Source: an uncultured Candidatus Saccharibacteria bacterium (GTDB lineage Bacteria > Patescibacteriota > Saccharimonadia > Saccharimonadales > CAZARM01). From it: DNA of 61,911 nucleotides. Position numbers and translations under genes: made by a program. Positions within the stretch are counted from its first letter, which is position 1; each line of letters begins with the position of its first letter. Shown here piece after piece: positions 12,675-58,747 of this stretch. The notes under the pieces were generated by a model that searched no databases, had not been told where the DNA came from, and saw nothing but the letters and a program-made list of their open reading frames with translations. The DNA lies in contig CAYXCB010000003.1 in NCBI GenBank assembly GCA_964463635.1, positions 1-61,911 on the forward strand, given 5' to 3'.

Positions 12675-13721
12675 TTATTCTAACTTCTCAGTATCAATAT
12701 GCGGGTTGTAATGCAGGCTGTGCTGGTAGAAGAAATAACCGATTGGCAGCTGCGTAAACATACTGATCACGCGGAAAGCTACGATTACAGGCAAGCTCAG
12801 TGATGCGGCCACCCCTGCGGTGGCAAACACACCCGTCATCAGGGCCTCATAAATCCCTACCCCGCCTGGCAGTACTGAGACAAGTCCCGCGAAATTAGCG
12901 ACTGCGTAGGCAATGACAACCGCGCCCGGGTTAATCCAGTAGCCAAACGCTACAAACACGCTGTAAATAGCGATAACTTCCGTTAAAGTCACGCCAAGGG
13001 CGAAAAGTAGAGGCCGATTCAGGGCTCCCAAATTGCCCCTCATCAACCTATAACTCTCATGGATTTCCGTAAAAGTACTCCTGGCTCGCTCAATATTAAT
13101 TGTCTCAGGGTGTTTAGGACGGACTATATGAATGATCCGATTAATCAGCTGGGCCAGCCAGGTAAAAAAACTGTTAATGCGCTCTTTGCTGCCAATTATA
13201 TAAGCTCCCGCGGCAGTACCCACTAGCAGCAATGTTGATAATGATCCTGCAACTAGTATTACGAAGTCGTTAGCACTGCCCCCGAAGGCTAGCATTAACA
13301 ATCCCAGGCCCAACAATACTTGGAACGACACGAACAAGAGTATGAAGCGCATCATCTGCACGAATGTGGCTTTGGCCGTCGATATACCCTCGCCTTTCAT
13401 GCGCATCGACAAATAAGCGTAGCCACTGACACCGCCGCTTGGGAAGACATTGTTAATCAAATTGAGTTCCAGGCTTAACCGCATCATTGACTTAGTGCGG
13501 AAACGGTCGCCAAAAATTCGGAATAGACCTTGGTAGACTTTTGCCTGGAAAAAATGATTCAGCAAAGCTAATGGAACGATCATGAGAATCGGCCAGGGAT
13601 TGGCGGTCTGCAGATTATACAAAGTGTCGTACAATTGGTCGCGCAAGGCGTAAGCGGTGGTAACCAGGGCTAGCAAGGTCAGAAGCGTGACAATAGACTT
13701 CCAGCGACGGTTTTTACTCAT
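12675..13721 (-). CDS. Lysylphosphatidylglycerol synthase TM / flippase-like membrane protein
   Basis: NNVFPSGGVSG, PGGVGIYE, FRVIS motifs and many TMs. Confidence 0.85.
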   Translation of the reverse strand: MSKNRRWKSIVTLLTLLALVTTAYALRDQLYDTLYNLQTANPWPILMIVPLALLNHFFQAKVYQGLFRIFGDRFRTKSMMRLSLELNLINNVFPSGGVSGYAYLSMRMKGEGISTAKATFVQMMRFILLFVSFQVLLGLGLLMLAFGGSANDFVILVAGSLSTLLLVGTAAGAYIIGSKERINSFFTWLAQLINRIIHIVRPKHPETINIERARSTFTEIHESYRLMRGNLGALNRPLLFALGVTLTEVIAIYSVFVAFGYWINPGAVVIAYAVANFAGLVSVLPGGVGIYEALMTGVFATAGVAASLSLPVIVAFRVISMFTQLPIGYFFYQHSLHYNPHIDTEKLE

Positions 13722-13750
13722 TAGAGGTTATTATACCCCAAGCAATTAAA

Positions 13751-13925
13751 TCACGACTTACGCAATTGGATGCAGAATAGGATTTATTCTCGAGGAACGG
13801 ACTGAGATGTACAGGCTGGTACATCGTAAGGAGTACTGAAAAGAAAAATCCTATTCTGAGCCAAGAACGCGAGCACAGTGGCGGGCTCTGCTCGTCAGTC
13901 GGTTCGTGTGGTGCGTGAGTCGTGA
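13751..13925 (+). repeat. 175-bp nested palindromic element (structured motif copy 1)
   Basis: TCACGACTTACGCA/TGCGTGAGTCGTGA termini; CAGAATAGGATTT/AAATCCTATTCTG; GATGTAC/GTACATC apical stem. Confidence 0.8.
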
Positions 13926-13938
13926 GTATAATAATGGG

Positions 13939-38824: not shown

Positions 38825-38848
38825 ATGTACATTCTACCTCCCAGCAGC

Positions 38849-38875
38849 TATTTCCAGGGTGCCACCCTGGAAATA
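38849..38875. repeat. REP-like hairpin, type A (left)
   Basis: TATTTCCAGGGT-GCC-ACCCTGGAAATA. Confidence 0.9.
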
Positions 38876-38893
38876 ATGTTATATACTGTGTTC

Positions 38894-39511
38894 ATGCCAG
38901 GTAAAAATTTAGAAAAGGTTTATTTAGAACATAGCTTTTATCATGTCTATAACCGTGGTAATAATAAAGAGACTGTCTTCCATGACCCTGAAGACTATTC
39001 TGTTTTCCTAAGCCTGTTCAAACGATACATGAGTGATAAACCTGTTAAGGATAACAAACAGCGCGAATATCCATGGCTGCAACACGAAATTGAATTAGTT
39101 GCTTTCTGCCTAATGCCTAATCATTTTCACATGCTTGTTTATCAAAATACACCCGAGGCTATGACAAAACTACTTCAGCACGTCAGCACTGCTTACGGGA
39201 TGTACTTCAATAAAAAATACAAAAGAGTAGGTCGACTCTTCCAGAGTAGGTTTCGGGCTAGCATGATATCGAATGATTCTTATTTACAACATATATCACG
39301 CTATATTCACCTCAATCCAAAGCACTATAAAGACTGGAAGTACTCAAGCCTGCCCTACTATCTCGGATTCAAAAAAGCTGAGTGGTGTAAGCCTCAAAAA
39401 ATTATGGAACTCTTTGATAACAAGCCTACCCTGTATAAAAAATTTGTCAGTGATTATGAAGAAAATAAGAAAATTCTAGACGACATAAAGCACGAGTTAG
39501 CAAACTACTAG
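38894..39511 (+). CDS. REP-associated tyrosine transposase (RAYT/Y1 HUH)
   Basis: YHVYNRGNN, FCLMPNHFH (HUH), G.LFQ.RF, RYIHLNP, YSS; TATACT 6 nt upstream of ATG 38894. Confidence 0.92.
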   Translation: MPGKNLEKVYLEHSFYHVYNRGNNKETVFHDPEDYSVFLSLFKRYMSDKPVKDNKQREYPWLQHEIELVAFCLMPNHFHMLVYQNTPEAMTKLLQHVSTAYGMYFNKKYKRVGRLFQSRFRASMISNDSYLQHISRYIHLNPKHYKDWKYSSLPYYLGFKKAEWCKPQKIMELFDNKPTLYKKFVSDYEENKKILDDIKHELANY

Positions 39512-50567: not shown

Positions 50568-50581
50568 CTCCCAAGCTAAAG

Positions 50582-50699
50582 GCTTTCGTAGTTGCTTGCA
50601 GTTCTAGGCAGGACCGAGCAACGGAGTGAGCCGTACGCAAAAGGTACGGTGAACGAGTAGCGGAGGTTCTAACGACGAAATGTAAGTAAGTAGGAAAGC
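50582..50699 (+). ncRNA. Structured element in the rpmE 5' leader (structured motif copy 2)
   Basis: GCTTTC/GAAAGC, TTGCTTGCA/TGTAAGTAA (two G-U pairs), CCGTAC/GTACGG; core homologous to 13791-13840. Confidence 0.6.
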
Positions 50700-50704
50700 G
50701 TTTT

Positions 50705-58135: not shown

Positions 58136-58747
58136 TTAGACGTTGGCAAGCTCGAGTTTTAATTCTTTGAGTATTTGTTTGTGGCCTTCGAAATCCTTTA
58201 AGAAGCGGCTGTAGTCTTCCGAGTTAGAAAACAGCTGCAATATAAGTCCGGGTCTTACCCACTCTGCTGTTTTTGCGCCTAGATAATAGGGTAGGCTGGA
58301 AAACTCCCAAGTGGCGTAATTTTCAGGGTTTAGATGTATGTATCGCGATATATGATGTAGATAGTCGTCACGAGTAATACGCGAGGCTTTAAAACGATCT
58401 TGAAACAGAGGTCCGATACGCTTGTATTTCTTGTTAAAATAAGTGCTGTAGGCAGTACCCACCCCTCTTAACAATCTGGTCATAGCTTCCGGATCGTGCT
58501 GGTAGATGAGCAAGTGCCAGTGGTTCGACATAAGGCAGAATGCCAAAAGTTCAACCCTTTCATGCAGCCATTCATAATTACGCCCCTTTAGATCAGCAGA
58601 TGGAGAGTCGTTTAAATAACGCTTAAACAAGTTTAAAAACACGCTATAGTCTTCCGTATCCAAAAATACTGACTGCTTGTTCACGCCACGATTATAGAGG
58701 TGATAATAACCTTCGGTGTATTCTTTAATCCTATTACGGCTGGCCAT
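58136..58747 (-). CDS. REP-associated tyrosine transposase (RAYT/Y1 HUH), second paralog
   Basis: YHLYNRGVN, FCLMSNHWH, G.LFQ.RF, RYIHLNP. Confidence 0.92.
   Translation of the reverse strand: MASRNRIKEYTEGYYHLYNRGVNKQSVFLDTEDYSVFLNLFKRYLNDSPSADLKGRNYEWLHERVELLAFCLMSNHWHLLIYQHDPEAMTRLLRGVGTAYSTYFNKKYKRIGPLFQDRFKASRITRDDYLHHISRYIHLNPENYATWEFSSLPYYLGAKTAEWVRPGLILQLFSNSEDYSRFLKDFEGHKQILKELKLELANV

Follow-up and report, generated by a model that had tools for sequence, protein, structure and literature searches.

A dispersed, structured insertion element in Patescibacteria with probable distant kinship to Rickettsia palindromic elements

Two structured segments in the DNA of an uncultured Candidatus Saccharibacteria bacterium were found to be copies of one element, which is real, mobile and non-regulatory. 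Our best explanation, to which we give about even chances, is that of a non-coding insertion of about 120-175 nt, present at lineage-specific sites, distantly related to the Rickettsia palindromic elements (RPEs) RPE-5 and RPE-1 and spreading as a folded single strand. The novelty is the model-based link of the Patescibacteria element to these two families; dispersed palindromic RPEs themselves are known. Neither such an element in Patescibacteria nor RPE relatives in other phyla appeared in the literature covered, subscription papers lying mostly outside it. The window is the whole stretch of DNA analysed (61,911 nucleotides), and the genome carrying it (G000) comprises 787,508 bases (0.79 Mb).

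The fold shared by the copies is a rod consisting, from its base, of a terminal stem, module A, a helix of 5-6 bp, module B, 2 bp, module C and the apex. Module A is a purine loop divided by one G-C pair, module B comprises a GA/GGA loop, 2 bp, a 1x1 mismatch, 2 bp and a GGA/GA loop, module C is a tandem GA-type loop, and the apex has the form GTAY/RTAC with a variable loop. Both cores were located in the sequence where the original prediction had placed them, that of copy 1, CGAGGAACGGA, beginning at 13791 and that of copy 2, CGAGCAACGGA, at 50615. Copy 1 (13751-13925, + strand) has the full-length form, a three-way junction of 175 nt whose fold reached -80.6 kcal/mol (z -8.0), with none of 200 shuffles equally good. 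Its outer stem P1 pairs 13751-13764 with 13912-13925, the 3' arm stopping 1 nt short of a -10 box. In the long arm P2 (13766-13864) module A, the outer purine loop, has given way to a near-perfect stem (13773-13785/13846-13858). The conserved core of modules B and C plus apex, delimited from folds and alignments, covers 13787-13845 and includes the GTAC apex stem (13806-13812/13819-13825); a second hairpin, P3 (13867-13909), is the feature of the long form, and all these parts lie on the + strand. Copy 2 (50582-50699, + strand) is a plain rod, about 120 nt long, that has all three modules, and the region 50575-50700 folded at -53.6 kcal/mol (z -7.4). A resemblance of its apex to group II intron domain 5 was rejected, Rfam lending it no support. 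The differences between the two copies had been read as compensatory, and they hold as such in both predicted folds. The outer stems had been described as unrelated in sequence yet paired; they do differ between copies 1 and 2, but that of copy 1 recurs in other genomes, the 12 nt of its P1 arm at 13753-13764 being identical to the terminal arm of two Uhrbacteria copies (L179 and L260). The outer stem is therefore part of the element.

Pattern searches with HMM iteration identified 22 copies in G000 at E < 0.05, and a covariance model built from 23 G000 copies (R1) identified 26 at E < 1e-3; 23 of these were rows of its training set, among them copy 1 with 74 bits. Only two copies had been noticed originally, and both searches raised the number in G000 to about 26; the dispersed family that had been proposed was borne out, as R1 also found 1-35 copies each in 25 of 30 same-order genomes. 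The G000 copies occupy 0.4% of the genome and share a mean pairwise identity of 48% (maximum 72%), none of the 26 being a recent, near-identical copy. When 150 genomes sampled from the phylum were searched with R1 under stricter filters, 12 were positive, and nine of these lie outside the order. Moraniibacteriota and Uhrbacteria are among the named carriers, the strongest of which are Saccharimonadales records. Rfam 15 returned no match at the gathering threshold in the window, nothing notable at E ≤ 10 around copies 1 and 2, and no match over the element in 10 further loci. Among viral contigs there were 16 pattern matches, none scored by R1, and a second pattern gave none; the three pattern matches on plasmids were all due to chance.

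Some carriers bear labels of other phyla. A Planctomycetales-labelled metagenome bin of 2.3 Mb had nine copies, with LpxC present and carB-purF flanks, and a Polyangiaceae-labelled bin of 6.1 Mb had three R1 matches, with uL30 present and flanks of 67-70% GC; judging from these contents, both look non-CPR. A search for uL30 in G000 gave no match. Records labelled Bdellovibrionales, Gammaproteobacteria, Limnocylindrales and Verrucomicrobiia were rejected as carriers from other phyla and are probably mislabelled Patescibacteria, because the many-copy records with non-CPR labels have sizes of 0.7-1.5 Mb and CPR-like tested markers; LpxC, searched in three of them, and uL30, searched in two, gave no match. 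The probable mislabels with non-CPR taxon titles are G181, G182, G184, G187 and G188.

Ends could be called from the fold in 79 copies. Of these, 42 were classed as rods, with a median length of 124 nt, and the other 37, which have a second hairpin and a median of 175 nt, as three-way junctions; the calls were automatic and some are wrong. Many rod copies have terminal arms in common. In a MAFFT alignment of the G000 copies, 89% of cells were paired and 15 of 19 pairs changed on both sides. On four of five measures almost all shuffles fell short, and 21 of 500 shuffles attained the number of two-sided pairs. For 30 copies from other genomes, in an alignment fitted to the model, 92.5% of cells were paired (25-47% with slid partners as control) and 17 of 19 pairs changed on both sides. 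These two-sided changes agree with the fold under constraint that had been postulated. Conservation was higher in internal-loop columns (1.39 bits) than in paired columns (0.82 bits), as claimed for the purine-rich unpaired segments, and its peak fell in the internal loops rather than at the ends.

Such pairing might instead be maintained by template switching at replication, which would keep palindromes paired with no selection on the folded molecule, the likeness to RPEs then being convergence. Stems can be created and repaired in this way, according to PMC8794818; module A has been perfected into a stem in some copies, copy 1 included, and some outer arms mirror host sequence. Under this process, however, internal loops should vanish, yet they are the best-conserved columns, and G-U pairs persist. 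Dispersal to new sites is left unexplained, as is the occurrence of the same loop modules, the outer one at -29 also in RPE-1, and we therefore consider template switching as the whole explanation quite improbable.

In all 26 copies the element strand gave a better fold than the complement did, with a mean gain of 9.9 kcal/mol as RNA and 3.6 kcal/mol as DNA, a superiority that is expected of any G-rich strand. The folding strand was the same regardless of gene direction, and copies occurred in both orientations; G-T cells exceeded A-C cells by only 33 to 19.

Comparison with relatives indicated that copies occupy lineage-specific sites. Copy 1 lies between a lysylphosphatidylglycerol-synthase-like gene (12675-13721, Pfam PF03706 match) and an RlmKL-like methyltransferase gene, which diverge from each other with start codons at ATG 13721 (minus strand) and ATG 13939 (plus strand). 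As had been predicted, two divergent -10 boxes flank it in the sequence, at 13730-13735 (- strand) for the former gene and 13927-13932 (+ strand) for the latter; they are host boxes of inferred leaderless promoters, with similar hexamers in relatives, and a sigma-70 scan reported neither. In three DNA runs, all of one sample, a contig covered 13412-14300 with zero differences and no joint bypassed the element. For this site 19 loci were fetched, 17 of them from relatives with the same divergent gene pair. The spacer measured 37-76 bp in 11 of these 17, both same-family genomes included, and the short spacers contained a back-to-back pair of -10-like hexamers, 6-8 nt upstream of the start codons; copy 1 therefore lies upstream of both inferred transcription starts. 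R1 matched the site in none of the 19 relatives. In two relatives a copy was located just downstream of the methyltransferase gene, not upstream (L022:605-718 and L035:1339-1452). In another (L031, G013:C1), copy 1's intergenic site was occupied, as judged by eye, by a longer hairpin insert whose apex is GTAC, and a similar insert occurs in G000 (C27, near 286); R1 scores neither, and they possibly represent a sister family.

Copy 2 has been inserted downstream of the rpmE -10 box (50562) and upstream of the ATG (50705), and AGGA at 50692, within its 3' arm, would be the inferred ribosome-binding site for rpmE. In most of 29 relatives the rpmE -10 box lies 7-8 nt from the ATG, and an element precedes rpmE in only one of them (G001), where it is of a different subtype. 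The label of rpmE leader given earlier to copy 2 thus had to be abandoned in favour of an insertion into the rpmE 5' region. In seven of the 29 relatives (L120, L127, L130, L131, L136, L137 and L140), though not in G000, another conserved hairpin, of about 30 nt, follows the -10 box and precedes the start of rpmE; it is a candidate L31 leader.

Further copies of G000 were found in frame within conserved proteins. In MutM the element adds 56 aa (14 of 18 relatives short, three with unrelated inserts) and in TsaD it adds 43 aa (nine of 12 relatives short, three with unrelated inserts); both frames are open. The unrelated inserts, also in frame and partly hairpin-forming, occur in the same loops (MutM in L043, L046 and L047; TsaD in L352, L359 and L363), and from the sequences these loops appear to be recurrent tolerated insertion sites. 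The methyltransferase match was split within one open frame near residue 207-212 in four genomes (G011, G026, G027 and G028) and near residue 336-348 in another (G002), which suggests further in-frame inserts. Outside genes, G000 copies lie in sense orientation before pyk and before atpA, and in antisense downstream of rpsG and of ssb and in the atpE-atpF and rpsA-infB intervals; several besides copy 2 terminate just before a start codon. Around single copies, a repeated ATG context was noted by eye. The element thus behaves as RPEs do, being a stem-loop that is dispersed both between genes and in frame within conserved proteins.

These placements bear on the proposal that the element is a cis-regulatory RNA, a ribosomal leader or riboswitch common to rpmE and other genes. 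Its covariation is RNA-like, and the copies that stop just before a start codon, copy 2 among them, would suit such a role. Against it stand the scarcity of pre-rpmE copies (1/29 relatives, of the other subtype), the position of copy 1 upstream of both inferred promoters, the many copies that are antisense or in frame, and the lack of any Rfam match. Since antisense, in-frame and promoter-upstream copies occur, a cis-regulatory role cannot explain the family; there is no conserved sense placement before one gene class, the proposal is largely refuted for the family, and we regard it as highly improbable.

As outlined in sections of reviews including PMC2229807 and PMC10969869, RPEs are repeats of Rickettsia, 105-150 bp long, that also occur as in-frame inserts and for which target duplication is unclear. 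A resemblance to them had been drawn from architecture, and it goes further, to reciprocal model matches (RPE-5, RPE-1) and in-frame inserts. Whole genomes were searched as the unbiased test of this link. R1, trained on G000 alone, gave six matches in R. tamurae (E 0.002-0.09), all of which overlapped TIGR03776 (RPE-5) matches on the same strand. A further two genomes of Rickettsia yielded 18 (E 0.0016-0.96), 17 of them RPE-5 and one RPE-1. In the three genomes together, 24 of 24 R1 matches were thus RPE-5 (23) or RPE-1 (1), each of them weak; in two other genomes, R1 gave nothing at E ≤ 0.1. In the reverse direction, a covariance model from 21 RPE-5 copies only, with its structure taken from an RPE-5 fold (R3), gave three matches across G000, all three on element copies (E 0.069, 3.2 and 6.6), and 14 in an 86-kb copy-enriched set, the top 10 being copies, with copy 2 among them (50584-50688, E 1.2). 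None of these cross-family matches was individually significant, the best E-values being 0.0016 (R1) and 0.069 (R3) under a rough calibration.

Family-level profiles behaved differently. An RPE-5 DNA HMM (29 copies) placed none of its eight matches on element copies, and TIGR03776 gave nothing at E ≤ 10 against the MutM and TsaD proteins and the MutM insert. TIGR01045 (RPE-1) had no match in G000 or in the MutM insert, with positive controls at 60-73 bits; an RPE-1 model found nothing genome-wide in G000, and the best E-values of RPE-1 DNA and RNA profiles and model were 0.43-2.4. Because these profiles fail, the Patescibacteria element is probably a relative, not a member, of the RPEs.

An exact pattern scan of GTDB genomes retrieved at least 120 loci, two of which were dropped as duplicates or contig-end. 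Among the pattern matches listed, 53 were of RPE-1 type, counted as one family and not as 53 observations, 33 were of the Patescibacteria-element type and 32 were other distinct ones; the matches in Rickettsia were RPE-1 (TIGR01045 60-73 bits in 3/3). Because the pattern was derived from element alignments and its gap chosen with RPE-1 in view, a pattern match alone cannot count as blind evidence. When sequence beyond the pattern was scored with matrices built from Patescibacteria copies, RPE-1 had a median of 13.9 bits as compared to -5.3 for chance matches (maximum 13.4), and this median was reached by 0.5% of random places. The outer module stood most often at -29 in both the Patescibacteria element and RPE-1.

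RPE-5 is about 115 nt long, intergenic and conserved in structure, according to parts of PMC2267715. Its rod has the outer loop (module A) and module B in common with the element, module B nearly letter for letter, followed as in the element by a GTA-TAC apex, and in some lineages both prefer the C-rich strand. The element differs from RPE-5 in its extra module C, its often present second hairpin, its other terminal arms and a shorter helix between modules A and B (5-6 bp vs. about 11). With RPE-1 (TIGR01045; about 146 nt) it shares the GTAC apex, the 3' strand of module B, the distance from outer module to apex and, as far as relevant passages of PMC10969869 and PMC2229807 describe it, in-frame insertion into housekeeping proteins. 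Module B of RPE-1 is displaced about 3 bp along the helix relative to the element, and the TA ends of RPE-1 are no rule in Patescibacteria. Taken together, we consider it likely that the element and the RPEs are distant homologues whose modules have been re-spaced along the helix, rather than members of one family.

Within a small set (L448-L465), a DNA profile made from RPE-1 only was run against 17 RPE-5 copies and matched 13 at E < 1e-3; the two families thus appear mutually related. RPE-1-like copies were also seen in records labelled uncultured Alphaproteobacteria and Amoebophilaceae, along with one module-positive match in Owenweeksia (together L176, L199, L231, L233 and L214).

Mobility of such elements is left open in passages of PMC2229807. 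One possibility is a classical MITE: double-stranded DNA whose terminal inverted repeats are read by the DDE transposase that moves it, its internal fold then being incidental. The terminal arms common to many rod copies fit this, and RPEs are classed as MITE-like in parts of PMC10969869 and PMC2229807. Flanking direct repeats, however, were not in excess (mean 3.81 vs. 3.66 nt, P = 0.07, n = 79), with ends taken from folds and copies that may be too old for this measure; conservation is maximal in the internal loops, not the ends, and the fold is strand-asymmetric. We accordingly give a MITE only a small chance.

Another possibility, with the strand-specific fold and a replication bias in its favour, is a hairpin of single-stranded DNA that an HUH (Y1, RAYT-like) transposase would move, as with REPs and IS200/IS605 ends. 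G000 has six RAYT-like Y1 genes of 203-228 aa, two of them in the window (38825-39511, + strand; 58136-58747, - strand) and four elsewhere. Among the genomes compared, the median copy number was 8.5 in 12 with a Y1 gene vs. 2 in 19 without (P = 0.006, kin not being independent). Nevertheless, each RAYT-like gene lies beside its own palindrome of 18-33 bp, on both sides in five, and the flanks of all six had neither an element copy nor a match to its profile; moreover, five genomes with 16-35 copies lack a Y1 match (G016, G012, G121, G181 and G184). Reverse transcriptase (PF00078) gave no match in G000 and a match in only six of the 31 genomes, its presence being unrelated to copy number (P = 0.14). 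As required partners, reverse transcriptase and Y1 transposase are unsupported.

Strand bias was assessed as orientation relative to GC skew in 20-kb windows chosen around matches. In three Patescibacteria outside the Saccharibacteria and outside the order, two of them of one genus, the folding strand was on the C-rich strand in 28 of 28 copies; with respect to their neighbours, 20 of these were antisense, two sense, three divergent, one convergent and two at a window edge. Elsewhere the figure was 4/6 in G181 and 13/26 in three same-order genomes, where bias was absent. In the complete genome of R. kotlanii the C-rich strand held 19 of 23 RPE-5 copies (P = 0.003) and 27 of 43 RPE-1 copies (P = 0.13, not significant). 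In G000 both strands are used within a contig, and the skew is too weak and the contigs too short for a replication bias to be read. Gene direction and replication direction were separated in part only. IS200/IS605 elements act on the lagging-strand template. A folding strand on the C-rich strand is unlike that use and, together with the lack of association with the RAYT-like genes, makes HUH transposition unlikely, if less so than a MITE.

Other small, dispersed, palindromic and non-coding elements are REP/BIME with RAYT, the bacterial MITEs ERIC, RUP and Correia, and the Caulobacter CIR, and the transcripts of REP/BIME, bacterial MITEs and CIR fold (parts of PMC3733652, PMC3184786 and PMC2229807). 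The present element is longer than REPs and has no tie to RAYT genes, and, as compared with bacterial MITEs, no target duplication was detected for it. CIR, considered here by its description, has two arms and a linker with a GANTC site and is never intragenic according to sections of PMC2229807, whereas the element is paired at its ends.

Under the preferred explanation, spread as a folded single strand, this strand would probably be RNA, as the G-U pairs and tandem G-A loops suggest, and it would be recognised in trans through the G-A-rich internal loops of modules A and B. The element would be non-autonomous and inserted at replication forks, either by copying into the new leading strand or by joining into the lagging strand; by either route the folding strand would end on the C-rich side. 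Only copies that keep the loops would seed new copies, and selection on the fold would thus act on the element lineage, which would produce covariation among copies without a host function. Host tolerance may follow from a closed outer stem and an open frame, which would make copies nearly neutral, and a copy that lands after a -10 box could provide a ribosome-binding site. For some copies, template switching (PMC8794818) may be the source of repaired stems and of a perfected module A.

The element accounts for loops peculiar to a lineage in the core proteins MutM and TsaD and for new leaders on otherwise leaderless genes of reduced genomes. The conserved part is the set of internal loops, not the ends, and it is a candidate handle for a mobilising protein. 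A diverged relative in Patescibacteria supplies covariation that the near-identical Rickettsia copies lack, two-sided variation being found in only 4 of 13 predicted pairs of RPE-1 vs. 17 of 19 in the element, and the question of mobility becomes testable outside pathogens. RPEs, which had seemed specific to Rickettsia, are likely part of a family that extends across several phyla and is defined by its internal loops. More tentatively, and with the odds rather against it, RPEs may be one branch of a so far unrecognised superfamily whose members, protein-free mobile RNAs, occur in Patescibacteria, Rickettsiales and certain genomes labelled Planctomycetota and Myxococcota, have interchangeable G-A-rich loop modules and would be copied at the fork by a host route without a conventional reverse transcriptase or transposase.
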